A DNA stretch of 64,000 bases from an uncultured archaeon. GTDB taxonomy: Archaea; Micrarchaeota; Micrarchaeia; Micrarchaeales; CABMGC01. The stretch covers positions 156,148 through 220,147 of the forward strand of contig CAVSOP010000006.1 of the NCBI GenBank assembly GCA_963729635.1. The letters run 5' to 3'. The notes under the pieces are model-generated. The model was not told where the DNA came from. It worked only from the letters and a program-made list of their open reading frames with translations, and searched no databases. Made by a program: the position numbers and the translations under genes. Positions 11,453 to 47,549 of the stretch are shown one piece after another (the stretch's first letter is position 1; each line of letters begins with the position of its first letter).

Positions 11453-11506
11453 ATAGCAGCAGTCCTGATATTAATAAAAATCTTAACAAATATATAATGC
11501 AGTCAG

Positions 11507-11581
11507 GGGCTCGTAGCTCAGCTTGGTTAGAGCGACGGTCTTATAAGCCGTAGGTCGAGTGTTCAAATCTCTCCGGGCCCA
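11507..11581 (+). tRNA. tRNA-Ile with anticodon UAU
   Basis: Hand-folded cloverleaf: acceptor GGGCTCG/CGGGCCC, D arm GCTC..GAGC, anticodon stem ACGGT/GCCGT with loop CT-TAT-AA, T loop TTCAAAT, discriminator A. One U-U mismatch in the T stem (GAGTG/CTCTC). Confidence 0.8.
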
Positions 11582-11592
11582 GTACACGATTA

Positions 11593-12246
11593 CTAATTCG
11601 ACGCTTCTGATCCGCGGATTTGCGGGGAACCTTCCGGCAGCGAAATAATTTCGCTCTTGTCATCCTGCCTCAGCACAATGGTTACTTGCGCCTCTTTGCT
11701 ATAGCTTTCAGAGGCCGTTTTTCGATAGGCCGAAAGCTCTATCCGAATGTGATTCTTATCTGACCCGAGGAAAATGCCAACAAATCTGAACTGCATGCCT
11801 GCGCCATTGATGATTGACCGGGTAACATTTTCGCCGCAATCGTCTGGCCAGTCCCGCATATGCTTGAGCTTTACGTCAATGGTCAGGTTCAGATATTTTC
11901 TGGCGTCGAGCTCCTCTACCAATTCCAGGAATTTCCTAAAGCTCTTTTGCTCGAATTCGTCTTTTCCTCGATTCGCAGTATCCTTGTTACTTCTGTCCTG
12001 GAAGACAGAAATTTTGATTTGCTCAGGAAATGCGTTCAGGGGCCCCTGTCCTGGAACAGGATGCAACGTAAAGAGCAGATTAATCTTTCTGATGTAGTTT
12101 GTAACTTCATTTCCCAAACGTTTTGGGACGGCTTCAATCTTATTTATGGTATAGGCTATTTGGGTACGTTCGCACGTCAATGGCTCTAGATTTAGATGGG
12201 TCCATATAGGATTGGGATTGCCGGCGAGTTCGCGATGCGTTTGCAT
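11593..12246 (-). CDS. Orphan hypothetical protein in a low-GC patch next to tRNA-Ile
   Basis: 217-aa ORF. Visibly more AT-rich, with codon usage unlike its neighbours. No recognisable motifs. Confidence 0.5.
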   Translation of the reverse strand: MQTHRELAGNPNPIWTHLNLEPLTCERTQIAYTINKIEAVPKRLGNEVTNYIRKINLLFTLHPVPGQGPLNAFPEQIKISVFQDRSNKDTANRGKDEFEQKSFRKFLELVEELDARKYLNLTIDVKLKHMRDWPDDCGENVTRSIINGAGMQFRFVGIFLGSDKNHIRIELSAYRKTASESYSKEAQVTIVLRQDDKSEIISLPEGSPQIRGSEASN

Positions 12247-12298
12247 GCTTTAATAGATCGCATCCGGCCTATAAATACGTTCCCGTTAAACTAATTTT

Positions 12299-12631
12299 AT
12301 GAAAAACGAGTCGCTAGTAAAGCGCACCGCGCTTTTCCGGATAAGGAGGCTTCTCGCCCTGGCTGAGGAGCGCACGCTGGAGAACACCGATAATTCGAGG
12401 AGGCTCGCGAAGAGGTACGCTGGCATAGCCGAGAGGATAAGCACCCACTACAAGGTAAAGATACCGAAGGCCTTGGACGGCAAGGTCTGCAAGAAGTGCG
12501 GAAATTTCCTGGTGCCTGGGATCGACTGCAGGGTGCGCCTGGCAAGCGTCCACGGTTACGTGGCATATGCGTGCGAGTGCGGGAAGGAGGTGCATGTGCA
12601 CTACAGGGCGAAGGCCTCAGGCGGTGCCTAG
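12299..12631 (+). CDS. rnp4: RNase P protein subunit Rpr2/RPP21
   Basis: 110-aa ORF: N-terminal helices RIRRLLALAEE...AKRYAGIAERIS, then a zinc ribbon CKKCGNFLVPGIDCRVRL...CECG. Confidence 0.85.
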   Translation: MKNESLVKRTALFRIRRLLALAEERTLENTDNSRRLAKRYAGIAERISTHYKVKIPKALDGKVCKKCGNFLVPGIDCRVRLASVHGYVAYACECGKEVHVHYRAKASGGA

Positions 12632-13143
12632 GGCCTCCGACATGCGCTCGACCAGCTCCTCTATCTTGCCCGAGTCTGAGAGGGTCATGATGTTCTTGTC
12701 AAGCACGAGATGCCCCTTCGCGGGCACGCCGCGATAGAGCCTCACAAGACTCTCGGTTTCCGGCTCTGTGCCGGCCACTTTTGCCTCTCTGAGAACGTTC
12801 GCCTTTGCGGCGATCTTTATGCCGTTCCCTATCCCTACGACCAGCCTGTTGTTGTCGTGGAAGGCCTTCACTATGTCGAGCAGCGGCCGGTACTCATACA
12901 GCCTGAAGGAGTCGACCCCGCTGCCGTCGGCGAGGATGATGGCGGACAAGCGCAACGGATCCAGCTCAGCGAAGGTGGCGTCGGGCTTCACCACGGCGCC
13001 GTGGTAGCCAGTGCAGTCCTTCGAATTCACGCTCGCGACGACCTTAGACATGTCCTTCTTCGCCAGCAGGAGACCGAGCAGAGAGAGGGTCTCGTCCCTG
13101 AAGTTCCTGGGGGGTATTATTATCGCAACCTTGACTTCATCCA
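12617..13143 (-). CDS. DJ-1/PfpI-like (class I glutamine amidotransferase fold) protein, nucleophile Cys apparently absent
   Basis: MDEVKVAIIIPPRNFRDETL...AIILADGSG...LVVGIGNGIKIAAKA. The fold-typical pattern is present, but the elbow reads GIGNG rather than containing Cys. Confidence 0.5.
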
Positions 13144-13220
13144 TACACTCGCCTACCTCATATGTAGCAACGGAAATAAGATAAATACGCAACCCTGCCG
13201 GGGGCACTCCCTCCGATGGC

Positions 13221-15233
13221 CTATTGCGCAGGCGCTATGCGCCTTCTCATCAATACCGCAAGGCATGCCGCCAAGACAATAATGGCGATGATGCCGACCA
13301 GATTACCTAAGGAGACGAAGAAGAGCGTGGCCTCCTTCCCGTCCGAGACCGAGGCGCGCTCGGTAATGCCGAGATAGCTCGCCGTCGCGTTCGCACCCCC
13401 GCTGGGCACGTCTGCGACCAGGACCTCGCCCGACGGCCCGGAGTACTTCTGTGAGATGCTCGCGTTGTCGTAGGCCAGGGATACGGTGGCGTTGACCGGC
13501 AGATCGAAGAGGTCGACGGTCCTTATCCTCACGTCGTAGACGGGGAGGGAAACGTTGAACGCGGACGGCCCGTTAGCCGTGAAACTCAGGTTCGCGGGCA
13601 GGAGCACCCCCTTGTAATAGGCGGCGCTCAGCAGTGAGGTCTGGTTCGCGTCAAGGAAGAAGCCGCTGCCTGACTGCTGCCGGCCGTTGATCACGAAATA
13701 AGACACGTTGATGGGGTTGCCCTGGGCGTCCTTGCCGAGCATGCCCACCAGGTATTGCCTGGCGAACTGGGCCCTCAGGCCGATCGGGGAGACGACCTTC
13801 TCGCTTATGGTGGCGTTAGCGTTCCCGTTGCTCCACGAGGTGAAAGCTAATCTCTCCCCTTGGCTTAGGTTCACTACGGGCTGCGGCACGCTCAGGTTCG
13901 CGTAGCTGCCCGACTGGTACCAGCCGCTTCCCGTTGCGTTGCCATACGACGAGGTCGCGTTCACGAGGTACTCGTGCAGCCAGAGGGAGGTGAGCGTGAC
14001 CGGGCTCGTGGCCGTGACCGTGCCGTTGAGGTACATGTTTCCATTGCTCCACGTCTCGAAAGCCTGCCTTTCGGCGGCGCTCTCGTAGACGGACGCGTTG
14101 GCCACTCCATATCTCACGATGGACCCATTGTTGTACCATCCGGAGCCGTATGCGGAGGAGAAGGGGGTGGAGACGTTCACGAGGTACTGCTGCTGCCAGT
14201 TCGCCCTCTCGGTTATGTTCCCGTCGAGCAGCAGGGAGACGTTTTCCCTGGGTCCTGTGTACGCCCCCAGGCCGGAGCCCGTCCAGCCGGCGAACAGGAC
14301 CTGCGATGAATTCCCTAAGTATATGGCCCGGGGCGCCGAGAGGCCCACATTGGTGTATGCGACGTAGCTGTTCTTCCCGCTCAGGCCCCCGTACTTCGAG
14401 AGTATACTCACGGAGTAGCCGAGGGTCCACAGGCGGGAGTTGTTCGTATTCAGGGGCAGGCCCGAGCCGACGGCGAAGTAGTTCGTCCTGGTTCCGACTT
14501 CCTTGACGCCGTATGGATTGGGAAGAGTATCGTCGCTGCCCACCCCGTAGCTTATCGTCGCGTAGCCGCTGGAGACGGGGAGGAACGACCCTCCTTCGTA
14601 GGCGGAGAGGTTCGCGAAGATGACGCTCTTCATCTGTGCGGTGTTGCTTTCCGTGTTCGCCACCTCGGCGAGGGCGACGGGGTAGTCGGAGCCCGAGGAG
14701 GACACTCCTAGATTGATGTTGCCTATCTCGTTCCCGTCTAAGTCGACGTGCCAGGTGTTGCCAGAGGAGAAGAAAGAGTAGGTGTGGAAGGTGCCGCTGG
14801 GGCCCGCCGAGGCGTCCGGCCCTATGCGGCCCATGAACGATCCATTCTCGTTAGGGAGGAAATACTCGTAGAACCACTCGGCGTCGCCAGCGTTCAGGAG
14901 CTCGATGCCTGAGCAGCCCGACGCGGTGCACACCGCTGGATAGTCTCCCGTCTCGTTCTCCACGACGTAGCCAACCTGGATGAAGGCCCCGTTGGGCAGG
15001 TTCTCCCCGACCCAGAATGCCATGGAGCCGGAGCTGCCGCCCTGAGGGGTCACGGTCTGTATGGAGACGCTGGCTCCTCCGTTGGGGAATGATCCCGCGC
15101 CGGCCCTCGCGCCGCTCTGGAACCAGTATCCCGCGCCGGCCGGCGCCGCGAGTAGCAGCAGGGACGCAATGAGCGAGATCGCAAGGAGGCCGTATCTTTT
15201 CATAGTCAATACCACTCTCTTTCCGTCAATCAT
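13221..15233 (-). CDS. Large surface glycoprotein candidate: signal peptide, globular N-domain, tandem beta-rich repeats, C-terminal TM anchor
   Basis: The signal peptide is MKRYGLLAISLIASLLLLAAPAGAG (likely true start about 15203). There are dozens of N-x-S/T sequons. Repeated modules read [Q/H][Q/E]YLVN.s....YG...GSGWY..GS.......W.SWSNGN, resembling divergent InlB B-repeats. The C-terminal helix GIIAIIVLAACLAVLM is followed by RRR. Confidence 0.6.
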   Translation of the reverse strand: MIDGKRVVLTMKRYGLLAISLIASLLLLAAPAGAGYWFQSGARAGAGSFPNGGASVSIQTVTPQGGSSGSMAFWVGENLPNGAFIQVGYVVENETGDYPAVCTASGCSGIELLNAGDAEWFYEYFLPNENGSFMGRIGPDASAGPSGTFHTYSFFSSGNTWHVDLDGNEIGNINLGVSSSGSDYPVALAEVANTESNTAQMKSVIFANLSAYEGGSFLPVSSGYATISYGVGSDDTLPNPYGVKEVGTRTNYFAVGSGLPLNTNNSRLWTLGYSVSILSKYGGLSGKNSYVAYTNVGLSAPRAIYLGNSSQVLFAGWTGSGLGAYTGPRENVSLLLDGNITERANWQQQYLVNVSTPFSSAYGSGWYNNGSIVRYGVANASVYESAAERQAFETWSNGNMYLNGTVTATSPVTLTSLWLHEYLVNATSSYGNATGSGWYQSGSYANLSVPQPVVNLSQGERLAFTSWSNGNANATISEKVVSPIGLRAQFARQYLVGMLGKDAQGNPINVSYFVINGRQQSGSGFFLDANQTSLLSAAYYKGVLLPANLSFTANGPSAFNVSLPVYDVRIRTVDLFDLPVNATVSLAYDNASISQKYSGPSGEVLVADVPSGGANATASYLGITERASVSDGKEATLFFVSLGNLVGIIAIIVLAACLAVLMRRRIAPAQ

Positions 15234-15357
15234 GGCCCCGTCCGTCCGTCCGCGGGGCCGGCGCCCCTCAAATAAGTATTTTTATTCATGCTTATGAAGC
15301 GATACCATTATATTTAATTACTATCAATGATTAATCACTTATTAAAGCGGGGTTGCG

Positions 15358-16102
15358 ATGTTCGAATTGAAGCTTGAGAATGCAAAGCACTGGCGCGATT
15401 GCATAGACGCGATAGTCAGCCTCATAGACGAGGGCCTCTTTAGCATAGCGCGACGAGGGCATACGCCTGAAGGCGATGGACCCCTCGGGCATAAGCATGG
15501 TCTCCTTCTTCATGCCGAGCAAGGCGTTCTCGAAGTTCGAGATAGAGAAGGGGATGTCGATAGGGCTCAACCTCGACAACCTCAGCAAGATACTCGCGAG
15601 GACCAGGGACAACGAGGCGCTCGTGATGAAGGACACTGACGGCAAGATGTCCCTCGAGTTCATTGGAGACAATAGCCGGAGGAGGTACAAGCTCAAGCTC
15701 ATCGACGTCAAGAAGGGTGTCGAGAAGGAACCGAGCGTCGAGTTCGACGCGAACATAGAGGTGGACAGCGAGCACCTGAAGAACGCGCTCAAGGACGCTA
15801 CGCTCATCTCGTCCTACATATCGTTCAAGGCCTCCAAGGGCCAGTTCGCGATAAACGCCAAGGGAGACTCGGGGGAGCTTGAGGAGATCCACGAGACGGA
15901 CGGCGGCAAGATAAAGAAGGTCGACGTCACGAAGGACGCCTCGGCGGTCTTCAACCTCGAGTTCCTAGAGAGCATGGTAAGGTCTACACCGGTCGGGAAC
16001 TCAATAAAGCTGTCCCTCAAGTCGGACCAGCCGCTCAGGCTCAGCTACAACATCGGCGACGCGAACGTGACCTACTTCCTCGCGCCTTACGTCGAGGAGT
16101 GA
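15358..16102 (+). CDS. pcn: DNA polymerase sliding clamp PCNA, one apparent frameshift
   Basis: MFELKLENAKHWRDCIDAIVSLIDEGLFSIA joins DEGIRLKAMDPSGISMVSFFMP... (ORF 15476..16102) after a 1-nt shift at about 15450. The C-terminus ...VTYFLAPYVEE is typical. Confidence 0.9.
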
Positions 16103-16152
16103 AGGCCGCCGCTTTGACGGCATGCGTCTGGATTATAAATCTTGGATTGCAA

Positions 16153-17099
16153 ATGCCTAGCATGGCGAGGGCCGACAGTCCGAAGCTGGATTTTGCCTAC
16201 AAGTACCCCTTCTCCGCCGAGGCCAAGGAGCTCATATCATCCCTCAACGTCCGGGCGAGGTGGACGAGCGCTACCTCACGGCGGGGCTGGTGCGAGTCAA
16301 CGAGGCGATAAGCAAGTCCAGGATAGAGTTCTTCAGGGCCCCCCTCACGGAGCTCAAGTACACCTACCTCATGAGCTACGTCTACGCCAGGATGCTCATA
16401 AGCGCCGCAGGCGACAGGTACGCCCTGGCGAGGTACGTCGCCGCCGAGGCAGGCAGGGCGGGCGAGGCGCTCTTCGAGGACCGCGCGGAGAGCATAACCA
16501 GGATAGCCGAGCGAGCTCAAGCTCAACCTCAGGGAGGGCGGCGGCGAGTTCCTGATGGACTTCGAGGACTTCGCGATGATCCACCAGAAGGGCGAGGCGC
16601 TGCTGCTCGCGAACCAGCAGCTCGAGAAGGGGGGCGGTGCGCATGACCAAGGAGCGCGCGATAAGGCTGCTTGAGCACGCCGATAGGGAGGGAGATAGCC
16701 GAGAGGCTGCCCGATAGACAGGAAGGCGCTGCCCAGGGAGGTCGTGGAGATGTCCAGGGGCATAAGGCTCGAGGAGAAGCGCGCGATAGCCGCGGAGAAC
16801 ACGGGGCTCCTACGTCGTGGATAGAGAAGCTGCTCACGACCCCGATACCCGACGTGCGGCACAGGACGGTGAACCTCATACTCGCGCCCTACATGATGAA
16901 CGTGAGGAAGCTGGACGAGGACGCCGCGGTGAAGGTCATAAGCGAGTACATAGACCGGTGCAAGCTCGTCAACCCGAGCACGAACGTCAACGAGTCCTAC
17001 ATAAGGTACCAGTGCCGCTACTCCAAGACGAAGGGGATGCGGCCCCTGGCGGCGTCCAGGGCGAAGGAGCTGCTGGCCGAGATGATAGAGTTCGGTTGA
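16153..17099 (+). CDS. priL: DNA primase large-subunit-like protein (PriL-like), several apparent frameshifts
   Basis: The N-terminus KLDFAYKYPFSAEAKELISSL and ...SYVYARMLISAAGDRYALARYVAAEAGRA resemble archaeal PriL N-domains. The C-terminal part reads WIEKLLTTPIPDVRHRTVNLILAPYMMNV.... Pieces lie in at least 4 frames (shifts near 16255, 16515, 16690, 16810). Confidence 0.5.
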
Positions 17100-35854: not shown

Positions 35855-36373
35855 ATGCAGTTTTTCGATATCGTTGCACTGAAGGAGGAAATCGACCTGG
35901 AACAGCTTGCTCCGAGGTTCGGCTACAGGAAGATGTTCCGCGTTGGGAAGGACGTGGAGCTCGTCAGCGACGTGAAACGCCTGAACGAGGAGGGCAGCTT
36001 CATAGTGAGGAGCGGGAACAACGAGACGCTCTCCAAGGCGGTGAGGAGCAACAGCGTCATCGGCGTCATAGTGGACGACAGCAAGGTCAGCGGGAAGTTC
36101 ATAGAGGAGCTGCGCACGCACGAGAAGCTGCTGTTCATCCCCGTCTCGCCGCTGGTCTGCCCGGCGCAGGAGAGCAGGCTGCGGAGCCTCTTCTGGGCCA
36201 AGGGCATCCTCAGGACGGCGCTCATGGGAAAGGCGAGCGTGTCGCTGGTGACGCTCGCCGCCGAGAAGGAGTGCCTGCTCTCGAGCGGGCAGATGCTGGA
36301 GATCGCGAAGCTGCTGGGCGCGAGCGACAAGATCGCGAGCGAGATGCTCTCCGCGCTGGGTGGTCCGCTATGA
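35855..36373 (+). CDS. rnp3: RNase P protein subunit Rpp30-like
   Basis: 172-aa ORF immediately upstream of and overlapping pop5, the usual rnp3-rnp2 pairing. The C-terminal pattern ...SVSLVTLAAEKECLLSSGQMLEIAKLLGAS is compatible with the Rpp30 TIM-barrel end. It is shorter than typical. Confidence 0.6.
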   Translation: MQFFDIVALKEEIDLEQLAPRFGYRKMFRVGKDVELVSDVKRLNEEGSFIVRSGNNETLSKAVRSNSVIGVIVDDSKVSGKFIEELRTHEKLLFIPVSPLVCPAQESRLRSLFWAKGILRTALMGKASVSLVTLAAEKECLLSSGQMLEIAKLLGASDKIASEMLSALGGPL

Positions 36374-36737
36374 TATTCAAGAGAAAGCTGAGGTACGTGC
36401 TTGTGGAGGCGAGCCGCGAGGTCAACCTGGCCGACAAGAGGGAGGTGGACGACCTGAAGTCGAGGCTGCACGGGGCGATGGGGGAGGCGCTGTACTTCAG
36501 GGCCAACCTGCACGTCGCCGCGCAGCTCAGGGAGGACGTATTCGTGATCAGCGCGAACAGGGGACAGGAGAGGGACCTTGTGCTTGCGCTTTCATTCATA
36601 AGGAGCTGGGCGGGAATAGGATGGGCTTCTACACGATAAAGATATCCGGCACGATAAGGAGCCTGAAGGACTATTTCTTCAAGACGTACGCCAGTAAACG
36701 CATCGGATGCCGACGCGGGGGTTTGGTCGGGCCCTAG
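36370..36737 (+). CDS. rnp2: RNase P protein subunit Pop5, one apparent frameshift
   Basis: MIFKRKLRYVLVEASREV...LVLALSFI joins KELGGNRMGFYTIKISGTIRSLKDYF... after a shift at about 36598. Confidence 0.7.
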
Positions 36738-36853
36738 GTAAGCCAGGATCGTTCTGTCGGCGCAGTAGCAGCGGCGGGTTGCCGTCGGATTCCACGGAAA
36801 ATTTATTATACCTTGCCGAACATATCACTACCGCGTAGAAATACGGTGAATAC

Positions 36854-37153
36854 ATGAAAATAAGTGAACTGAAAGCCGGCGCCACGAACGTGGAGCTGGA
36901 AGGAACTGTTACAGAAAAGAGCGAACCTAGGGAAGTCATTACGAAGTATGGCAAGAGGCTTAACGTTGCTAATGCCGTGATAAGTGACGACACTGGAAGC
37001 ATCTCCATATCCCTCTGGGGAGAGAACATCGACCAGATAAACATGGGAGACAAGGTCAAGGTCACCAACGGATACGTTGGCGAGTTCAGGGGAACCCCGC
37101 AGCTCTCGACCGGCAAGTACGGAAAGATAGAGGTAGTTGAAAAGGCAAGCTGA
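36854..37153 (+). CDS. Single OB-fold ssDNA-binding protein (SSB/RPA-like)
   Basis: 99 aa: MKISELKAGATNVELEGTVTEKSEPREV...VANAVISDDTGSISISLWGENID...GDKVKVTNGYVGEFRGTPQLS. Confidence 0.75.
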   Translation: MKISELKAGATNVELEGTVTEKSEPREVITKYGKRLNVANAVISDDTGSISISLWGENIDQINMGDKVKVTNGYVGEFRGTPQLSTGKYGKIEVVEKAS

Positions 37154-37160
37154 AGCTGGA

Positions 37161-38451
37161 CTAGAAATCCAGTTTCAGCTCTTCTCCTATCTTGGGTGCG
37201 TGGGCGTCGAAGCCCTCCATCCTCAGGTTTTCGGCGAACTCGTCAGCCGCGGCTTTCTCCCCGTGCACGCAGGCGACAGTCTCCGGCGCGCTCTCCCTTA
37301 CGTAGCTGTAGAGGTCGCTCTTTCCCGAGTGCGCCGAGAAGTCGTAGAAGGCGAAGGGAGTGTGGATGCGCAGCTTCTCCCCGTCTATGTTTAGCTGGCT
37401 TGCCCTCAAGCAGCCTCCTCCCGTTGGTCCCCTCCACCTGGTAGCCCGGTCAGGAATATCTTCGAGTTCTGGCCGAGCTTCGTGAGGTAGTTCAGAACGG
37501 GGCCGCCGTTCAGCATCCCGGCGGTGGTGACTATTATGCCGGGCGAGTTCATCGCGGCCTCCCTCGACTGCGCGGAGCCGAGCCAGTCCATGCGCTTCGA
37601 CGCGCTGCGAAGCAGCTCGATGTTCTTCATGAACTCTGGGTGGCGCATCGCTATCTCCGTGGCCGTCTTCGCCATCCCGTCGATGCTGACGTAATCTATC
37701 AGGTTGTTCTTGTAGAGCAGCGCTATGATCTCCTGCGCCCTCCCCACCGCGAAGACCGGAACGAGCGCCGTCCCGCCGTCGGCCAGCACGCCCCTCACGT
37801 CGTCAATGAATCCCTTGGCGAGGGCGTCCCTGTTCGGGTGCTCCCTGTTCGCGTAGGTCGACTCTATTACCAGTATGTCGCTCTTCACGACCTCCGCAGG
37901 TCCCTGGAGTATCTGCGGCTCGAGCTTGAAGTCTCCGGTGTAGACCAGACGCCTGCCCTTCTTGTTCTCTGATCGCGTGATCGCGCTGCCGGGCACGTGG
38001 CCAGCGTCGTGCAGCGACAGCGAGTAGTCCCCGATCTCCGTGACCGAGCCGTACTCGTAAGGGGCGAAGTGGTTCAGGAATGTCTTGAGCTGGCGCTTGG
38101 AGAACTTGCTGTGCCTGGTGGTTCTTCCTGCTTATCTTCAGCGAGTCGTCTATCAGGAGCTCGCTCAGCTCCTTGGTCGGCTCGGTCCCGTAGGTGGTGG
38201 GGAAAGCCGTGTCGTAGAGCATCGGCATCGCGCCGGAGTGATCGAGGTGCGAATGGCTGAGCACGCACGCGTCGACCCTGCCCGGCGGGAAGGGGATACT
38301 CTGTCTTGTCGTCAAGCTTGATGCCGTAGTCCAGGAGTATGCGCTTGCTTCCGTTAAGCAGGATCGCGGATCGCCCGACCTCTCCGGCTCCCCCGAGAAA
38401 ATGCAGCTCCGACATGGCCATCAGCGTATAATCCTTTTTAATTGTTGACAT
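37161..38451 (-). CDS. Metallo-beta-lactamase/beta-CASP ribonuclease (aCPSF2-like, no KH domains), about 4 apparent frameshifts
   Basis: LHFLGGAGEVGRSAILL, VLSHSHLDHSGAMP (HxHxDH), DAGHVPGSA, ESTYANREHP, LVPVFAVGRAQE, and C-terminal FSAHSGKSDLYSYV...VHGE. Pieces lie in several frames (shifts near 38300, 38090, 38000, 37420). Confidence 0.8.
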
Positions 38452-38477
38452 TTATATGCTAGTGGAAGGATGGTTCG

Positions 38478-39177
38478 ATGGCTGATGAAGAAATCATAAC
38501 ATTCACCGATCTCGCCTGCCTCTTGAAGATAACGCCGGAGACTACCCTTGAGAAATTCGGAAGCACCATAAACGCGAGCATATACGATGCCGCGCAGATA
38601 TCCGGGACGCTGAAGCAGAAGGGGCTCATAGACTTCACCGCATACTACCCCGGGCCCAACAGCATGACGATAACAGACGCCGGCAAGGCGCTGAAGGACG
38701 AGGCCGAGGCGAAGAGCGCGGAGACGCTCGACAACCTCGACGAGGAGGTGCTCGTGCAGCTCTCAGGGGGCAAGAGGATGCCACTCGAGCTCCAGAGCTC
38801 GCTGAACATCAGGCCGAAGGACCTCGCGCTCAGGCTATACAAGCTCAGCAAGCAGGGCCTGATCGGCTACGAGCTCAGGAACGGCAACGTGGAGCTCATG
38901 CTCACCGAGCAGGGCTTCCTGAAGGCCAAGACAGCGCAGGCGCCGAAGGCGCCTCAGATGGCACCCCCTGCTGCGCGCCAAGCAGGGCATGCCGGAGAGC
39001 GATGCGCTGGTGGCCAAGGCCGCGGGGCTGCCTCTGGGCATGCCGAAGAGCGATGGAGGGATGCGGACGATCAAGGTCGCTGCCGTTGCGGTGGTGGCGG
39101 TCGTCGTTGCCATAATGGCGCTGTACTTCACGGGCCACCTGGCCTCCGTCACGAGCTACCTGGGTAATACTATATAG
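38478..39177 (+). CDS. Tail-anchored hypothetical protein with two winged-helix-like modules, one apparent frameshift
   Basis: The N-terminal part contains ...LRLYKLSKQGLIGYELRNGNVELMLTEQGFL. A P/A-rich linker follows, then a duplicated GMP[E/K]SD motif, then the C-terminal TM helix IKVAAVAVVAVVVAIMALYF. The shift is in the C5 run at 38965-38969. Confidence 0.5.
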
Positions 39178-39187
39178 CGTGTGTTCC

Positions 39188-39807
39188 ATGCCTCTGCTAG
39201 ACTATCTGCAGGCAAAGAAGCTGCTCGACAAGTACGGCATCCGCAGCATAGACAGCGCGTACGTCGGCACGGCAGATGACGCCGTGGCTTTCTCCAGAGG
39301 GGAAGGGGATAGTCCTGAAGCTCATCTCCGACAAGGCGATACACAAGTCGAAGGAGGGGCTCGTCAAGCTCGACCTCAGGGGGAAGGGGGAGATAACCGC
39401 GGCGTTCAACTACCTCGTGAAGAAAGGCGAGAAGCTAAAGCCCTACAAGATACTCGCGCAGAAGATGTCCGGCGGGGGCATCGAGATAATAATGGGAGGC
39501 AGCACCGACAAGCAGTTCGGCAGGATGCTCCTCGTCGGGCTCGGAGGCGTGTACGTCGAGACGTTCAAGGACGTGGAGCTCAGGCTGTGCCCCATAAGCA
39601 AGGACGACGCCAAGGAGATGCTCGCGGACCTCAGGTCGGGAGGAGTGATAACCTACAACGGGCGCGGCCACGGAGATGCTCGCCTCGCTCCTGACCAAGG
39701 TCTCCAGGCTGCTCGTCGAGAACGAGGACGTCAGCGAGCTGGACCTGAATCCGGTGATAGTCAGGGAGGATTCCTACGATGTAGTGGACATCAGGATAAT
39801 CAAGTGA
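39188..39807 (+). CDS. acdB: Acetate--CoA ligase (ADP-forming) beta subunit (ATP-grasp), 2 apparent frameshifts
   Basis: MPLLDYLQAKKLLDKYGIRS.., IVLKLISDKAIHKSKEGLVKLDL.., GIEIIMGGSTDKQFGRMLLVGLGGVYVE.., ELDLNPVIV. Shifts are near 39300 and 39665. Confidence 0.8.
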
Positions 39808-39811
39808 TGGC

Positions 39812-41200
39812 ATGCCGGGAAGAATAGACCTCAGACCGATGTTCAAGCCGAGGAGCGTGGCGGTCATCGGCGCCTCGAGAAACCCGGACAAGGTCGGGCA
39901 CATAATACTACAGAATCTCATGAAGGCGGGATACGACGGCAGGATGTATCCCATAAACCCAAACGCCGAGGAGATACTCGGGCTGCGCACCTACAAGAGC
40001 GTAGGCGCCCTGAAGAGGGCAGGTGGACCTCGCGGTCATAGCCATACCCGCGGAGGAGGTCCCGGGGGTCCTTGAAGAGTGCGGCAGGGCGAAGGTGAAG
40101 GCAGTAATAGTAGTCAGCGGGGGTTTCACAGAGGTGGGGAGGGCGGACCTGCAGGACAGCATAACGAAGATTGCCCAGAAATACGGCATCGCCCTGGTCG
40201 GACCCAACTGCCTCGGTGTCATGGACACGCGGTCGCGCGTGAACACCATGTTCCTCCCTTCGTACAAGCTAAGCTCCCCGCCCGTGGGCGGCGTGGGCTT
40301 CATATCGCAGAGCGGGGCCGTGGGAAGCACTGTCATCGACGTCATCGCAAGCGAATGCATAGGTCTGTCGAAGTTCATATCCTACGGCAACGCCGCGGGG
40401 GTGGACGAGACGGACCTGCTCGAATACCTCATGCACGACGAGGAGACGAAAGTAATAGTCATGTACATAGAGGGGATAAAGAGGGGCAAGGAGTTCGTCG
40501 AAGTGGCGCGGAAGGCGGCGCGGATTAAGCCTGTGGTGGTGCTCAAGGCGGGAAGGACGAGCGCGGGGGTGACCGCTGCGCACTCCCATACCGCGGCGCT
40601 CGCTGGGGACTACCAGGTCCAGGAGGCGATATTCAAGCAGTTCGGATTCACCATAGCCAACGACCTGGACGAACTGCTCTACTACGCGAAGATCTTCGCT
40701 TCGGAGATCGCCCCGAAGGGCAACAGGGTCGCGATAATCACGAACGGCGGCGGGGCGGGGGTGCTCGACCGCTGACGCTATAGCTTCGTCGCAGAAGCTC
40801 GTGATGGGCGAGCCTGACGGACAAGACAAAAGAGGAGCTGCGGAAGAGGATGCCGCCGATAGTCAACATCGCGAACCCCATGGACCTCGCCGGCGACGCC
40901 GACGCGGGCAGGTACGGCGACGCGCTGACGCTGGTTGGCAACGACCCGAACATAGACATGCTGATAGTGATAACGCTGTTCCAGACGCCGGGGGCGGACT
41001 CCAAGGTCGCCGCAGAGCTCGCGCACCAGAAGGACTCTATGGGCAAGCCGATGCTCGTCATCAGCGTGGGATCAGAGTACACCAGACTGCACAGGATAAT
41101 GCTGGAGAGCTGCGGGGTGCCGGTCTACGACTCCCCGGTCTCCGCGGCGAAGGCGCTGGAGGAGCTCTACAGGTACTCCAGATTCAAGGACAGGGCCTGA
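39812..41200 (+). CDS. acdA: Acetate--CoA ligase (ADP-forming) alpha subunit (CoA-binding/succinyl-CoA-synthetase-like), about 3 apparent frameshifts
   Basis: MFKPRSVAVIGASRNPDKVGH.., LVGPNCLGV, ISQSGAVG, and AHSHTAALAG (phosphohistidine loop). The C-terminal ligase-CoA domain reads NPMDLAGDA. Shifts are near 40020, 40770 and 40810. Confidence 0.85.
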
Positions 41201-41205
41201 TCATT

Positions 41206-42417
41206 TCATTCCGCGTTTTCAGAGAACAGCACCTCAAGCACCCTCTTGATGGCCTTCTCCTTGTTGGGCTCCGAGCTCAGCATCTCGAACATCTCGGAGG
41301 GGCCCAGGTCCAGGCCGTAGCCGTTCTGCTTGAGCTTCTCAACGAATATCCCGAGCCCGTAGTCCTTCACGGACATGTTCTCGAGCGAGCCCTTCCTGAG
41401 CGCGTCGATCTCGCCGTCCTTCGCCATGCTCTCCAGCTTGGACTTGGTTATCTCGACGGTCGCTGCGTCCTTGTAGCTCTTGGCGATTCCGCTGAGGTCG
41501 AAATCGATGCTCTTGAACCCTTCCTTCACGGCGCCGGTTATCTCGACCTTCACTATCGGCATCCCGCCGGCGGCGACCGCGGCGTCTATCCTCTCGCGCA
41601 CGGCTCTCGCGAGCTCGTCGGGGGTCTTGCCCTCCGCACTGACCTTCACCACCGACAGCCTGCGCGACTTTATCTTCCTGAAGGAGTACTTCTTCGCGAC
41701 GGTATCGTACAGGTAGAAGCCCTTCTCCTCCTGCTCCGAATCCTTGAGCTGGGTCAGCACGGTACTGCCGGGGATCAGCAGGGGCTTTCCGTGCACGGTC
41801 ATCTCTGTCTTGTTGTGTATGTGGCCGTCGACGTACAGGTCGAAGCCCTTCGGGAGGTCATCGAAGCTGGCGCATCCGCTGTCGAACGGCAGAAGCTCGT
41901 GGGTCGACTGGTGGAACATGAACACGTTGAAGCAGCCCTCGATGGGCTTCGGGTCCAGCTTCCTTATCGCCTCGGCGAAGTGCTCCTCTGAGACGCCGCC
42001 TATCCCGTAGACTGCGACCCGCTCCCCGTCCCTTCTCTATCACGGCGAAGCCGTCGCTCACGTCTATGAGCATCCCGGCGAGGGCGAGGAGGTTGACCGG
42101 GTTCTCCATCCTCTGCGCGCGCCTCTCGTGCGTTCCGGGAATCGCAATGACGGGCACGTCGGTGTAAGCCTTGCCCTCCGCCTCGAACGCTCGTCACCCT
42201 GGCCTCCCACTTCCTCTTCGAGACGCTCCTGAAGAGGTTTATCGCCTCGGCGAGGACCTCCGGCTTGGGCGCCCTTATGTCGAACAGGTCCCCGGGGAGC
42301 AGGAGCGCGTCGGCGACCGAGGCGGCGGAATCCAGGGCCTCCTGCGCCTGGCTGGTAGGCGTCCTCGTGGAACCTGTCGTAGCCGAGGTGGAAATCCGAG
42401 AATATGGCCAGCATCAT
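41206..42417 (-). CDS. mre11: Mre11-type DNA repair metallophosphoesterase, about 3 apparent frameshifts
   Basis: MMLAIFSDFHLGYDRFHEDAYQ.., LLLPGDLFD (in a shifted frame), PVIAIPGTHER, FMFHQ, VDGHIHN. Shifts are near 42350, 42180 and 42035. No rad50 is adjacent. Confidence 0.75.
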
Positions 42418-42466
42418 GGCAGCGACCTGTGCGCGCGATCTGCACGATTATATTTTCATCTTCTCC

Positions 42467-44930
42467 TTAATCTTCCTTACTACTTCCTCCCCTGCGCCCT
42501 GCGCGCCCTCGCGCCTGGGGCCGTAGGCCCCCGCGGCGCAGGCGTGGCCGCCGCCCGTGCCGCCCACCAGTCCGGCCACGCTCTCCATCATTATGCCCAG
42601 ATGGATGCCCAGCTTCTTGTCCAGGGGGGAGAGCAGCCGGGCCGAGAGCGCCGCCTCCTTCTCGGTAGTCGACCCAGAAGACAGCGGCGTCCGCGCCGAG
42701 GTTGAGCGCGGCGTCCGCCGCGACGTTCGCGTGCGCGTGCGCCCTGCCGTAGATTATCACATAGTCGCCGACTATCTCCGCCTTGGACGCGTAGATGTCC
42801 TCAATCGTCTCGTACCTGTTGTTCACGGGCACGTTGGCGTGGAAGTACTCGGATATGAACGAGAAGTCGACCTTTGATATCTCGAGCAGGTCGGCGATCT
42901 GCCTGAAGGTCTCAGGCGAGGAGTTGTGCAGGTCTGCCGAATCCGAGTCCGCCTAACGCATTGGAAGCGGTTTCGGAGGGCGAGGTCTGCCCCTCAAGAA
43001 GTGCGCCGCCTCCCACATATAGCCCGCCCGTGATTGCGGCGTTCCTGACGGATTCCTTTGCTATTGCTGAAAATATATCCCCTAACGTTTGGGTCCCTAC
43101 TTCAAGACCTTCACTAGCAGCATCTCCAGCAACGCCATACGCAGATGCTATCGCAATGACGCTCGCAATCCCGAATGAAGCCCCCAGCCCTATCGCAACT
43201 CCCTCTGCCCTGGTCGTAGGGTCTGAGCTGGCAAGGTAGGGTGCGATATAGCTCTTGATTGGATTGGTTATATAGCCGAAGGGGGACGCGTTTACGGTAG
43301 CCCCTATTGCGTTTCCTATCTGTTCTGCGTTGGAGGCGTCGGTTATCCTGAGAATATCGATCAAAGCTAGGGGATTCGTCTTAGCGAGGGCCATGTAGTC
43401 GTTGATCGTGGGGCTGATATTGGGCAATGTGACACTGCCGGAAGTCTTCATAGGGAAATACGAGGCTATCTGCGACTGCGCCTGCTGGGAGATAGGTGCG
43501 TTTTCCTGCTGGATTGTCTTCTGTATGCTGGTGAGAGCGCCATTGATGTCGCCCAGTGCAGCATTTCCAAATCCAGCGGAATATTTATATATGCTGCTGG
43601 ATATATCTCTTACTGTTGATGTTAATGAGCTGGGTATTGACGGGGGCGTTCTACGTGTTTGCAGTAGCGGTATGGTACTGGTCGGATTTGAAGTATAGGC
43701 AGTGGTCGAAGGCTTGGTTCCAAAAGAAGCACCAGCTTGAAGCGAAGCGGGCAGCAGCGATGAAGCATACTGCGTGACTCCTGCTGCCGGAGCTATTCCT
43801 GGAGTGAACGCTGAAGAAATCGTCCTCGGCTGGTAAGTCTGCGGCGTAATCCCCAATACCGCCGCAGCATTCGCCACGGCGGGGCCGTATTCCGGTCCCG
43901 CTGCCTGAAGGATCGAGTACCAGTTGGGCTCTACTGGTGCGGTCATCGGGGCGTTGTTGGACTGGAGCTGCGCTCCGCCTCCCAAGTCGCGGTATTCTAC
44001 GAGCGCGTTCTCGTAAGCCAGGGTCTGCGCTGGCGTTGGAGGCTGCCCATTGATCAGAATGCTGTTGGTCGTCGCATCGCGCACCCATCCCTGCGGCAAT
44101 GCAAGGATGGGCTCTCCGGGATAGGTGGCACCCTGCGGGGCCAATCCCTGGGATTCCAGCCATGCGTCCATCTGGGGCTGGGTCAATCCCATGGCCCCGT
44201 TGATGCTTGAGGGGATTTGCAGGACCGTGGGGGAAGTCGGTGAAGCCGGCTGCGCGGCCTGCTGCCCTCCTGCTGGCGTGAACGCAAGGCTGCCATTAAC
44301 CAGCGAAGGAGTCACCTGCACGCTCTGCCCGTTCCCCACCGCCATATAGTAATTCCCGTCCTTGCCCTGAGTCACCGAGCCTATCGCTCCCGTGGTCTGG
44401 ATGTAGCTCTGACCTCCGTAGGACAGGGCGGAGTTCTCCAGCCCGGCCGCGAGATTGGCCTGCTGGTAGGCCTGCGCGGCGCTCATAACCACGTTGCCCT
44501 GGGAATCGACCACGTTCGAGCCCTGTATCGAATAGCCCGGGGCGGTCGTGTAGGTCGTCCCATTCGATCCCGAAGCCGTCGTGCGGCGCGTGGTGGTCTA
44601 TGACCGGATCTCCCCGCGGAACTTCTCCAGCCGCTCCCTGAAAGGGCCCAGCACCTCAGGGGTGTTCGCGTCAAGCACTATAGCCAGGTCGGCGTCCTCG
44701 TGGAAGCGCGTCTCCATGCGCTTGCCGTAGCCAACGTACTCTAGCATCTTCCTGGCGTTGTTTGTGATGAAGTCTGGTGTGGCCACTACGCAATTCGTGA
44801 AGTAGGACGAGAGCGCCGCGGCGGCGCCGACGCCGTCGCGGTCGCCGATCGAATGGAACGTGAGCAGGACCTTCCTGTCCCTGTGCTCCCTGATAATGCC
44901 GCAGAGCTCGTCGAACGAGACGTTGCGCAT
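42467..44930 (-). CDS. DHH/DHHA1-family phosphoesterase (NrnA/RecJ-like) interrupted by about 1.5 kb of same-strand coding insertion
   Basis: The N-part reads MRNVSFDELCGIIREHRDRKVLLTFHSIGDRDGVGAAAAL...LAIVLDANTPEVLG...FRGEI/PVIDHHAPHDGFG. The C-part reads ESVRNAAITGGLYVGGGALLEGQTSPSETASNALG/ADSDSADLHNSSPETFRQIADLLE...GGTGGGHACAAGA. Together they make one complete DHH+DHHA1 protein. Junction stops coincide with +/-1 shifts. Confidence 0.7.
43056..44569 (-). other. Roughly 505-codon low-complexity (Q/A/S/T/G/P/N-rich) insertion within the DHH gene; unknown nature
   Basis: Part of ORF 42912..44513, which is open in the same frame as the DHH N-part. There are almost no K/R/E/D/H/C residues. A glycine-zipper-like hydrophobic stretch AIGLGASFGIASVIAIASAYGVAG lies near its end. 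The codon preference is different (caa, tca, tta, gga, aat, gct). No intein, RT, integrase or transposase motifs. Confidence 0.5.
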
Positions 44931-45295
44931 CAATGCGATCCCTGGCTTTGCTTGTACATCTGGGAGAGCCTGTCGGCGAGCGCCTTCTCCTTCGCCTTGA
45001 GCTCGTTGTACTGCTTCGTCACTGAGCCGATCCTCAGGTCGGCGAACTCGGCCCTTTCCTTTATGTCGGCGAGCGCCTTCTCCTTGCTTGTCTCGACTAT
45101 GATTCCTCCCATGGTCACGTAGACCTTCCCGCCGGCGCCAGAGACCTCCCCCTTGGCCTTCTCGAGCTCCGCCTTCTGGGTCTGGAACTGGTTGAGCTGC
45201 ATCGCGGCGACGCGCATCTGCTCCTGCACCGCCTGGTAGTCCCTGACCGCCTGCTCCGCTTCCTCCTGTCCTCCCTGCTGTGGTTGAGTGGCCAT
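44930..45295 (-). CDS. pfdB: Prefoldin beta subunit
   Basis: 121-aa coiled-coil/beta-hairpin/coiled-coil pattern: ...QLNQFQTQKAELEKAKGEV...KVYVTMGGIIVETSKEKALADIKERAEFADLRIGSVTKQYNELKAKEK. Confidence 0.8.
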   Translation of the reverse strand: MATQPQQGGQEEAEQAVRDYQAVQEQMRVAAMQLNQFQTQKAELEKAKGEVSGAGGKVYVTMGGIIVETSKEKALADIKERAEFADLRIGSVTKQYNELKAKEKALADRLSQMYKQSQGSH

Positions 45296-45425
45296 AAAAA
45301 CACCTGATTACGCCAGACATATCAACGCAAAAGGCCGTCCGGACCGTAGCGCGGCCCCTGACAAATTACATATAAAGTTTGCATATAAAGATATAAGTAT
45401 TGAGCTACATAACTGGCTTGACATC

Positions 45426-45909
45426 ATGGCGGAGCTAGGCGAATCTGGAGCTTATAGAGAAGGAGGTCACGCTGAGGAACCTCAGGCTTACCAAGGAAGT
45501 CCTTGAGACCCGGAGGTCGATAGTGAGGTGGCTGGCTCTCTCCCTTGGGGTGCTGAACCCGGGCGAATCCAGGCTCAGCGCGGTCTCGGTGCTGGACGCG
45601 CTCGTGCACTATAACTTCGTCGAGAAGACGACGCCCGACGTTGGCCAGCTCATGTCATACATAGGCAAGTACTGGGAGGAGATCAACGAGAAGACGCTGA
45701 GGTACCACCTGCTCAGGATGAGGAGGATGGGGCTGGTCGAGAATTCGCAGGGGAAGTTCTACCTCAGGCCCCCGAGCACCGGGGACGGGTCGGACGCATA
45801 CACGTGGGTCATGGGGCTCTACGAGAAGGATTACAGGGAGATAGCCGCCAAGGTCGGCGACGCCATAAAGGAGCTGAAGAACAAGAGCGCGATGGGAGGA
45901 TCGAAATGA
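45426..45909 (+). CDS. Winged-helix (ArsR/MarR-like) putative transcriptional regulator, one apparent frameshift near the start
   Basis: MAELGE then LELIEKEVTLRNLRLTKEVLETRRSIVRWLALSLGVLNPGESRLSAVSVLDALVHY...TLRYHLLRMRRMGLVE. The shift is at about 45445. The upstream region has tandem CATATAAAG boxes (45367-45397). Confidence 0.55.
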
Positions 45910-47549
45910 GGAGAGAGATATATCTTTGGATGCTATTCATAGTTGTCATAGCCGGGGCTGCGCTGTACTTCAGGTACTTCTACCAGCAGCAGATAAGCAT
46001 GGTGCTGCGGATGAACGGCTCGTCGGCGGGGTCGGTCTCATATCCCTACCAGAACGCCCCCCTGCCGATTTCAGTGTACAACAACGGGGGCGGCGCGATA
46101 ACGAACGTGAGCGTGGGCCTGTTCGTTAACGGCAACCTGACGACGCTCTACAAGGTGACCCTGCCTGCGGGGAAGCAGACAGAGATACCTTTCAACTACA
46201 CCCCGAGCGGGCCGGGCACCTACAACATAACTGCGGTGGCGGACCCGAGCAGGCTGTACGACATATCCGACAGAGCCAACACCACCTCTGGCGCGGTGCT
46301 CGTCATAATGCGGCCCGCGAACGCGACGGCTTACGCTCTGCTGCCCGCGAACGGACTGATTTCGCGCGAGGACCTGAACATGAGCAACTCGGGCTACGCG
46401 GTGGATTCATACCTTTACGACACCTACAACACGAGCGCGTTCGCGCTGGTGGACAACCCCCAAATCAACAACTTCATAGAGCCGGTGCTGAACCTGACCG
46501 CGGACTACATAAACAACATACGCGCCTCTACAGCCAAGTACGGGAACGGCGACAGGGCGTACTCCATCTGGCTGAGCGGCTACGTCCGCCCCAACATATT
46601 CACTGCCGCGGCGCAGGGCAGGGGCATGGCGTCCAACACCATCCAGACCGGCCTCGGAAACCTCACGATCGTCCAGATATCGAACAGCACGACGCTCTGC
46701 AGCTGGTACGCAGGGGGCTGGCTCAAGATACTGGCGTACTCCGGCAGCGTGACCTGCCACCAGGCGCTGAACGAGAGCGCTTCGGGAGCGCCGAACAGCG
46801 CACTGGCCTATCCCGTCCCGAGCGGGCTCGGTCTCATCGACGCCAAACTCCTTGCGAACTACACCGGAATTAGCGGCGCTACCAACTACGTCGCGACGCT
46901 CTCCCTGCTCGGCAATTCGTCCTTCATCTATGCGAGGATATCCAACCACACGACGGTGAACAACGTCTGCTACGGGGTCGTTGAGAGCGCCAACGGGATA
47001 AGCTACTGCAGCACATACCAGATCCCGGTATCCGGCGCGATAGGTGGCGCGAAATCCCTCGTGAAGACTACTGAGTACGTGGGCACGCAGAACCTCACGG
47101 TGATATCCCTCTTCAACTCATCACTGCTTACCCAACAGGTGCAGACCAACGTGGGCGTCATCAGGGGCTTCAACATCAGCGGCTCGTCGATGGCGTTCCA
47201 GTCGGGCCTGGTCAACACGTGCTCACTAAACGCCTCGTTCCCGTGCACGGGCGCCAATTTCAGCAACGGAGCGCTAGGATTCACACTGAAGAACGGACTG
47301 GGCGAGGGCATACGAATCAACAGCATGAGCTGCTACGCCGCAAGCGTTTCAGTTCCGATAAGCACGCCTGTGAACTCGCTGGTCGCCGCAGGGGGATCGT
47401 ACAACGCCACGGTGCCGTGCTACAACTACCAGGGCAGGATAAGCGGCATCGCATACAACCTCAATCTTGGCATAGGCCTCAACTACTCGGTGGCCAACAC
47501 GACGCACGCCCTCACCGGAAACGCGTACATACTTCTGGGTAGCGCATGA
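45906..47549 (+). CDS. N-terminally anchored extracellular glycoprotein with a CARDB-like domain
   Basis: MRREIYLWMLFIVVIAGAALYF (TM), then ..PISVYNNGGGAITNVSVGLFVNGNLTTLYKVTLPAGKQTEIPFNYTPSGPGTYNITAVADP (CARDB-like). More than 30 N-x-S/T sequons. ATGA overlap with the regulator gene. Confidence 0.6.
   Translation: MRREIYLWMLFIVVIAGAALYFRYFYQQQISMVLRMNGSSAGSVSYPYQNAPLPISVYNNGGGAITNVSVGLFVNGNLTTLYKVTLPAGKQTEIPFNYTPSGPGTYNITAVADPSRLYDISDRANTTSGAVLVIMRPANATAYALLPANGLISREDLNMSNSGYAVDSYLYDTYNTSAFALVDNPQINNFIEPVLNLTADYINNIRASTAKYGNGDRAYSIWLSGYVRPNIFTAAAQGRGMASNTIQTGLGNLTIVQISNSTTLCSWYAGGWLKILAYSGSVTCHQALNESASGAPNSALAYPVPSGLGLIDAKLLANYTGISGATNYVATLSLLGNSSFIYARISNHTTVNNVCYGVVESANGISYCSTYQIPVSGAIGGAKSLVKTTEYVGTQNLTVISLFNSSLLTQQVQTNVGVIRGFNISGSSMAFQSGLVNTCSLNASFPCTGANFSNGALGFTLKNGLGEGIRINSMSCYAASVSVPISTPVNSLVAAGGSYNATVPCYNYQGRISGIAYNLNLGIGLNYSVANTTHALTGNAYILLGSA

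Follow-up and report, generated by a model that had tools for sequence, protein, structure and literature searches.

A gene for a DHH/DHHA1 phosphoesterase of the NrnA type (nanoRNase/pAp-phosphatase-like), located on the minus strand of a 64,000-nucleotide stretch of contig CAVSOP010000006.1 (hereafter the window), appears to have been destroyed by a replacement, in which 132 bp of its core were exchanged for a 1628-bp internal fragment of an unrelated, larger gene. The event removed part of the DHH core structure and is not a clean insertion. We put at roughly 0.85 the probability of this reading, namely that the locus is a dead phosphoesterase gene of a probable Micrarchaeota (DPANN) archaeon and that it was killed by an ordinary recombination accident, not by an intein-like or new mobile element. 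The kind of event is already known; what this case adds is the nature of the disrupting DNA, a piece cut at both ends from a rare, uncharacterised giant-protein gene and apparently joined via microhomology. All coordinates below are window positions unless a contig is named, and residue numbers of the orthologue refer to the 328-residue protein P0002.

The extent of the replacement is defined by comparison with a contig of a related species (L002), which carries, like a further contig from that species (L003), an intact 328-residue DHH gene in an identical gene order. With blastn, nucleotides 1135–10360 of L002 align to window 53804–44572, and nucleotides 10493–16661 align to window 42943–36752. 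Between these blocks, the 132 bp of the DHH gene at L002 10361–10492 are exchanged for the 1628 bp at window 44571..42944. In a tblastn search with P0002, orthologue residues 121–163 (43 residues) are without counterpart in the window. The sequence so lost, RGEVRGFNDESYNSTASIVYAALKELGAEVSKGAAFLLLNGII, is conserved throughout the orthologues inspected and, when aligned with solved structures of the TM1595/NrnA type, corresponds to the helices that lie between DHH motif and motif-IV Asp.

The two remnants of the gene are clearly recognisable. The 5' remnant starts with MRNVSFDELC and ends with the DHH motif, VIDHHAPHDGF, at about 44572, and the 3' remnant runs from DSADLHNSSPETFRQIADLLE (about 42943) through GGGHACAAGA to KMKI and a stop codon at 42448, and includes both DSADL, with the motif IV Asp, and GGGH. 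When joined, the remnants match Pfam DHH (E = 1.6e-7; 32.1 bits, with a cut-off of 28.1) and Pfam DHHA1 (E = 1.1e-9; 39.1 bits, with a cut-off of 25.9). Since the two flanks lie on the same strand with unrelated coding DNA between them, and since their joined sequence matches these Pfam families, the physical observation is real. The catalytic motifs GDRDG, LDAN, IDHH, DSADL and GGGH are all legible and align to those of the orthologue and TM1595. In this respect the remnants resemble the NrnA-type DHH/DHHA1 phosphoesterases (TM1595/TmPDE, 5O1U; mycobacterial NrnA/Rv2837c), and they keep DRD as motif I, LDAN as motif II, DHH as motif III, DSADL with the Asp of motif IV, and GGGH. In contrast to those enzymes, the locus lacks the 43 core residues that lie between motifs III and IV and its three segments are in three frames, and what is left is a remnant without a complete continuous domain in any one frame, not a working member of the family.

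A search with the joined DHH sequence found 213 homologues, the best of which have 328 residues and are 75–76% identical. Among the 120 homologues listed, those with at least 85% query coverage are 300–349 residues long and an insertion is present in none. The source names place more distant homologues in Candidatus Micrarchaeota (DPANN), and several of the homologues bear the annotation nanoRNase/pAp phosphatase.

In one frame the insert is open along its full length, with a start or stop codon of its own at neither edge; its translation starts with GSNGTT and ends with ASNALGGL. The mechanically called open reading frame (ORF) of 533 codons crosses the right junction and ends at a TGA within out-of-frame DHH sequence, and upstream it is open to a TAG at 44598. 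The origin of the insert is indicated by two protein searches, one a word-indexed search of 5.8 billion proteins and the other an exhaustive HMMER scan that took in 1.84 billion cluster representatives. In the former, the sole match to the insert is the 99%-identical, 524-residue protein P0001. In the latter, three further proteins are found. The most informative, P0122, has 1455 residues and is 43% identical (E = 3e-81); its residues 244–708 align to the insert in HMMER, and its residues 199–707 align to window 44558–42936 in tblastn, that is, from junction to junction. P0122 extends approximately 200 residues before the aligned part and 750 residues after it. The second protein, P0123 (166 residues), has a cluster mate of 604 residues (P0127), and both are derived from other metagenomes. 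The contig encoding P0123 (L006) is 96.6% identical at the DNA level to window 44574–44309, and nucleotides 881–1649 of the contig encoding P0127 (L008) are 98.7% identical to window 44588–43818. In both L006 and L008 the reading frame continues upstream of the point at which the window turns to DHH sequence, and P0127 has 292 extra N-terminal codons with respect to the insert. The third, P0124 (575 residues, E = 7e-05), is a weak, repetitive match. These alignments show the insert to be a piece from within a larger gene, cut short both 5' and 3' in comparison with its free-standing homologues.

The donor gene belongs to no described family among those searched. Pfam, PHROG and NCBIfam profiles gave no significant match for the insert, P0122 or P0127, and a PDB sequence search with P0122 gave no match. 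No relatives of the family were found in scans of GTDB representative genomes and of IMG/VR, and tblastn with P0122 against the phage and plasmid collections INPHARED and PLSDB gave no match. A metagenome scan for the family returned a JGI contig of 1.37 kb (L007) as its sole match. AlphaFold2 was run on the insert with a 4-sequence alignment, as had been proposed in an earlier reading of this DNA made from the sequence alone (the sequence-only reading), and the resulting model, with a mean predicted local distance difference test score (pLDDT) of 36 and a predicted template-modelling score (pTM) of 0.23, is unusable and too poor for a fold search. The search for free-standing copies that the same reading had called for was more productive, L008 and L006 being such copies.

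The sequence-only reading had also described the insert as poor in charged residues, His and Cys, with a glycine-zipper-like end, and as compositionally foreign. The former part holds: only 8.3% of the residues are charged (D, E, K, R), His and Cys are lacking, S, T, A, G, Q, P and N are abundant, and there is one glycine-zipper segment. The latter part applies to the 3' half only. The G + C content at third codon positions (GC3) is 0.52 in that half, and 0.76 in the 5' half, which falls within the range of the host genes (0.76–0.88). The switch in composition near 43820 coincides with two contig breaks, those of L008 and L007. L008 leaves the window at 43818, and its nucleotides 1650–2127 are AT-rich, encode a Bacteroidetes-like aldose 1-epimerase on the opposite strand, and mark this scaffold as chimeric at the composition switch. 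L007 matches the window from 43743 on, and the part before the low-GC3 module (nucleotides 1–1014) contains a NUDIX hydrolase gene and an ORF of 166 residues that is LAGLIDADG-like (Pfam Hom_end, E = 0.0085). The donor gene is mosaic in look, and is perhaps multi-copy or strain-variable. In the window and in L001–L003, neither a further copy of the donor gene nor a NUDIX or LAGLIDADG-like neighbour was found, L001 being the contig from a different ENA analysis that is described below.

At the left junction the window can be compared base for base with both of its sources. The window reads CACGACGG(CTTCGG)GATCGAATGGG, the DHH gene of L002 reads CACGACGGATTCCGC, and the donor copy in L008 reads GCAGAGC(CTTCGG)GATCGAATGGG, with the hexamer in parentheses. 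The window matches the DHH orthologue up to TTC, and matches the donor copies in L008 and L006 from CTTCGG on, without a single deviation, and therefore there is no room for an assembly indel at this point. The codon phases of the two sources differ by one (GGC-TTC-GGG in DHH versus CCT-TCG-GGA in the donor), the donor gene reading CCTTCGGG at the breakpoint. At the right junction the window reads GGATTCGGC and the DHH orthologue AGATTCCGC; the 43%-identical donor homologue (L005) reads GAATTCGGT at the F-G codons equivalent to this breakpoint, which no closer donor covers. Both breakpoints in the DHH gene coincide with an 8-nucleotide direct repeat, GATTCCGC, which is present in the intact L002 gene at nucleotides 10356 and 10493. 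Both junctions of the window fall in the pentamer TTCGG, within CTTCGG on the left and within the octamer of Table 1 on the right.

The DHH N-terminal part, the insert and the DHH C-terminal part are in three different frames, with a step of +1 at each junction (1628 mod 3 = 2), after correction of two indels that are specific to the window. One of these is a deletion of one nucleotide at 44605, where L001 has a T that restores GEILVIDHH, and the other is an insertion of one nucleotide at 42670, a G that is absent from L001, the absence restoring FWVTTEKEAALSARLL. Each of them is either an error in the window or a mutation private to it. Translation that begins at the DHH start enters the insert out of frame, continues for about 90 codons and stops near 44296, and such readthrough would mean that no functional phosphoesterase is produced.

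L001 carries the same insert, with both junction strings exact. Its alignment to window 47867–35462 is 97% identical and has 83 gap openings, which amount to 88 gapped bases. Nucleotides 1–6622 of L001, at the place where the window goes on with Lhr, contain bacterial-type genes (an OprB porin, cytochromes c and PBP_like_2), and this contig is probably chimeric. In the window, the genes for Lhr, Metallophos, CoA ligase, ATP-grasp, CPSF and Rpp14 are all frameshifted in comparison with L002. The frameshifts occur at 36000–42500 and at 49400, in some genes three or four times, and the assembly of the window is indel-noisy and probably made from long reads.

These results bear directly on what the sequence-only reading had claimed for the locus. 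Two DHH/DHHA1 pieces flanking unrelated coding DNA on the same strand (about 1.63 kb) are confirmed by the ORFs, tblastn and blastn, the stop codons that it listed exist in the sequence, and the indel noise that it suspected is evident from L001, in which two of the four frame changes at the locus are absent. On the other hand, the view that the two pieces would normally be separated by a handful of residues does not agree with the loss of 43 conserved residues, and the stretch ESVRNAAITGGLYVGGGALLEGQTSPSETASNALG (ESVRNAAITGG...SETASNALG), taken for resumed DHH protein, aligns with QSVKNAAFMGGLNVAGGALLAGQTSPQQIASN of P0122 and belongs to the foreign gene. The possibility that the tail of the insert is a diverged copy of the lost DHH segment was likewise considered and rejected, for the tail aligns with P0122 and not with DHH. 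Nor are the segments compatible in frame, with 1628 bp gained and 132 bp lost; the frame apparently shared by the N-terminal part and the insert arises because the window lacks the T at 44605, a loss that at the same time puts the DHH motif out of frame. The empty site, to be located by orthologue alignment, is given by the intact syntenic gene of L002 and L003, which defines the breakpoints as 44572 and 42943. Separate ORFs together with a deleted DHH segment amount to the simple disrupted pseudogene that the sequence-only reading had named as the outcome contrary to its own proposal.

Several known systems share features with this locus. Inteins are similar in being large same-strand interruptions beside a catalytic motif of a conserved enzyme. 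In contrast to a canonical intein, such as that in GyrA of L002 and L003, there is here no Hint domain, there are no C/S/T...HN-C/S/T boundaries, the reading frame is not continuous, the host protein has lost a part, and the insert is a fragment of another gene of cellular type. The insert matches no Pfam intein, Hint or homing-endonuclease domain. Its removal does not restore the host protein, in view of the +1 offset at each junction and the 43 missing host residues. Excision as an intron could likewise not restore the 132 missing bases; no Rfam match was obtained in 40000–47000 at E ≤ 0.1, a bulge-helix-bulge (BHB) motif not having been searched for explicitly. The GyrA intein itself, of about 316 residues, is encoded in L002 at nucleotides 186–1134, has the boundaries GQGNFG/C...VHN/SVDGDPP and matches Pfam Intein_splicing; the gyrA gene of the window is intein-free at the corresponding point (about 53803/53804), where it reads GQGNFGSMDGDPP.

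Insertion sequences, transposons and proviruses also interrupt genes, and the 5-nucleotide TTCGG on both sides of the insert resembles a target-site duplication. Unlike these elements, the insert has no transposase or integrase homology in its single ORF (Pfam, NCBIfam) and no terminal inverted repeats at its ends, and 132 bp of the target are lost. The flanking TTCGG is, moreover, donor sequence at the left end and part of the pre-existing 8-nucleotide repeat of the target. Since the left TTCGG belongs to the donor gene's own sequence, it more likely represents microhomology than a duplication. The absence of intein, LAGLIDADG/HNH, transposase and integrase matches, which the sequence-only reading had reported, is upheld by Pfam, NCBIfam and PHROG.

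What is found at the left junction is the signature of microhomology-mediated capture, in that a donor exists elsewhere (L008 and L006) and shares CTTCGG(G) with the DHH site. A single illegitimate recombination event would remove the 132 bp that encode residues 121–163, and with them the pair of core helices that connects the DHH motif to motif IV, and the same event would place the 1628-bp internal fragment of the larger gene there in the same orientation. A break or a stalled fork in the DHH gene may have been repaired by microhomology-mediated copying or annealing of ectopic DNA. This route, whether by fork-associated annealing or by break repair, is most likely because the left junction, and probably the right one, is situated in microhomology of the TTCGG type. 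The ORF of 524–533 codons is probably open only because the event is recent, as suggested by the 98.7% identity to the free-standing copy.

A comparable process, SPDIR (short-patch double illegitimate recombination), is described for Acinetobacter. As outlined in that description, a genomic stretch is replaced by ectopic DNA with microhomology of a few bases at each junction and with no machinery encoded by an element, as in the present case. The SPDIR products outlined there are microindels, whereas the patch here is 1.6 kb long and is found in an archaeon, its mechanism is deduced from junctions, and a close donor is at hand for the left junction only.

Some observations weigh against the recombination accident. 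Both assemblies are indel-noisy, with many essential genes frameshifted, and arguments from frames alone are weak. The right junction is without a close donor sequence for a base-for-base check, and the window and L001 assemblies may not be independent at the level of samples or reads. Among the matches there is no full-length donor gene of the same genome, but only short, partly chimeric contigs and the 43%-identical homologue. Finally, the differences between the window and L001 show a purifying-like pattern that is unexpected for dead DNA. In the insert there are 14 substitutions, all in 44298–43653, of which 8 are synonymous and 6 non-synonymous, with an omega (ratio of the non-synonymous to the synonymous rate) of 0.26. 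In the DHH C-terminal remnant, the differences fall in 42908–42451 and comprise 9 synonymous and 4 non-synonymous ones. Omega for the insert and this remnant is 0.12–0.26, values that are derived from small counts in two noisy assemblies. Recombination with live copies or strains may be the cause of this pattern, or else a bias towards G/C changes at third positions. About 700 bp around each junction are identical in the two contigs. A special status of the 3' half of the insert, in which there are no differences, was considered and rejected, as the whole of 43–48 kb is nearly identical.

Five other explanations may be weighed against the accident. In the first, the donor family consists of very rare, mosaic, giant low-complexity proteins of Micrarchaeota (about four protein clusters in roughly 15 billion proteins), the modules of which are shuffled via microhomology of the TTCGG type, and the copy in the DHH gene is one product of an active process, or is expressed under selection (omega 0.26), and not a one-off accident. 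This explanation is suggested because what lies upstream of the same low-GC3 module differs between L007 and the window, and because contigs break near 43820. We consider it very unlikely.

Also very unlikely is the explanation that an element with a large gene, viral or plasmid in nature, entered the DHH gene and was later mostly deleted, so that 1.6 kb were left. It would account for the low GC3 of the 3' half of the insert in comparison with the host genes, for the extreme rarity of the unannotated donor family, for the structural-protein-like composition with a glycine zipper, and for the LAGLIDADG-like ORF that adjoins the same module in L007. However, no integrase, att repeat, tRNA target or other gene of an element is present, synteny resumes exactly on both flanks, no relatives occur among PHROG, INPHARED, PLSDB or IMG/VR, and codon usage in the 5' half of the insert is host-like. 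In addition, two independent deletions that both end in microhomology inside one ORF are less parsimonious than the capture of a single fragment. The suggestion of the sequence-only reading that the gene had been disrupted by a structural gene of a virus or plasmid is essentially right as to disruption by a piece of a foreign, structural-type gene, but a viral or plasmid origin is very unlikely.

The captured fragment may also have been exapted, the ORF of 524–533 codons being expressed from the DHH/prefoldin transcript and selected as a small new membrane protein. In favour of this, both noisy assemblies preserve the ORF intact and show no indel differences over 1.9 kb, omega between the two alleles is 0.26, and neutrality would give so few non-synonymous changes with a probability of about 0.012. 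The DHH C-terminal remnant, however, has the same purifying-like pattern, and the signal more likely comes from recombination with live copies or from third-position G/C bias. An open frame is, in addition, expected by chance after so recent an event. At least 292 N-terminal codons of the close free-standing copy and approximately 750 C-terminal residues of the distant homologue are missing, and no obvious ribosome-binding site was seen, by eye only, upstream of either start. Exaptation is thus highly improbable.

An assembly artefact, in which a chimeric join or a mis-collapsed repeat put a piece of another gene inside the DHH gene, is just as improbable. Contigs of these projects can indeed be chimeric, as L001 and L008 are, and assemblies seem to break at the donor gene. 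One junction, however, and not two, is what a chimeric read or contig yields, and the two junctions here are clean, are separated by 137 bp in the target and show microhomology on the left and probably on the right. The flanks are perfectly syntenic over more than 9 kb on each side, and the same two junctions recur without change in two contigs that are otherwise 3% different.

The proposal of the sequence-only reading, that the locus is one ORF of about 820 codons with an intein-like element, a new kind of element or an acquired domain inserted in frame beside the DHH motif and with sequencing errors as the cause of the frame changes at the junctions, is largely refuted and retains next to no credence: the noise of the window, the two window-specific frame changes and the open same-strand insert would speak for it, but neither keeping nor removing the insert yields a complete enzyme when 43 conserved core residues are deleted, the left junction matches DHH and a donor 1 nucleotide apart in phase (the donor coming from scaffold or k-mer assemblies of short-read style), both junction strings recur in L001, the insert is homologous to the middle of a 1455-residue protein and has no Hint/intein, LAGLIDADG or HNH domain, and the genuine GyrA intein of L002 is canonical, with C...HN/S.

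The locus, read as a recombination accident, is a cautionary case. In indel-noisy, long-read metagenome-assembled genomes, a same-strand foreign ORF in a conserved enzyme gene can mimic an intein or a new in-frame element, and such a case is resolved as a replacement-type pseudogene once intact orthologues and free-standing insert copies are brought into the comparison. It would also provide a clean natural example, in DPANN, of kilobase-scale capture of ectopic DNA with microhomology at the left end and probably at the right. It indicates that this population can do without a conserved NrnA-like phosphoesterase, or has it complemented, and it draws attention to giant low-complexity proteins that form an unannotated family and whose glycine-zipper module is conserved.

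Table 1. Features of the disrupted DHH/DHHA1 locus and its immediate surroundings (window positions)
Feature	Position	Strand	Evidence or remark
Prefoldin beta gene	44930..45295	minus	Directly upstream of DHH; synteny conserved
DHH/DHHA1 (NrnA-type) 5' remnant, orthologue residues 1–120	44572..44930	minus	tblastn with P0002; blastn synteny with L002; Pfam DHH
Left junction microhomology CTTCGG, common to DHH and donor genes	44570..44575	minus	Window versus L002 versus L008/L006
Insert, internal fragment of a large low-complexity protein gene	42944..44571	minus	blastn with L002; alignments of P0122 and L008
Insert 5' half, host-like GC3 of 0.76	43818..44571	minus	Near-identical to L008 and L006
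Insert 3' half, GC3 of 0.52	42944..43817	minus	Best-conserved portion of the family, 55% identical to P0122
Mechanical ORF of 533 codons, GTG start	42912..44513	minus	ATG at about 44486 in the 524-residue call P0001
Glycine-zipper-like hydrophobic segment AEGVAIGLGASFGIASVIAIASAY	43137..43208	minus	Sole transmembrane-like stretch (Kyte-Doolittle); conserved in P0122
Right junction GATTCGGC	42936..42943	minus	Second copy of the 8-nucleotide direct repeat in the intact orthologue gene
DHH/DHHA1 3' remnant, orthologue residues 164–328	42448..42943	minus	tblastn; comparison with L001; Pfam DHHA1
Metallophos (Mre11-like) gene, downstream of DHH	41206..42417	minus	Four frame segments in the window versus a 405-residue gene in L002

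The genes that surround the remnants follow the same order at the window locus as in L002 and L003, namely a CARDB protein, a hypothetical protein, prefoldin, DHH, Metallophos and CoA ligase. Elsewhere in the window, ARAGORN predicts a tRNA-Ile at 11507–11581 with the anticodon TAT (UAU), which is an uncommon way to read AUA in archaea.

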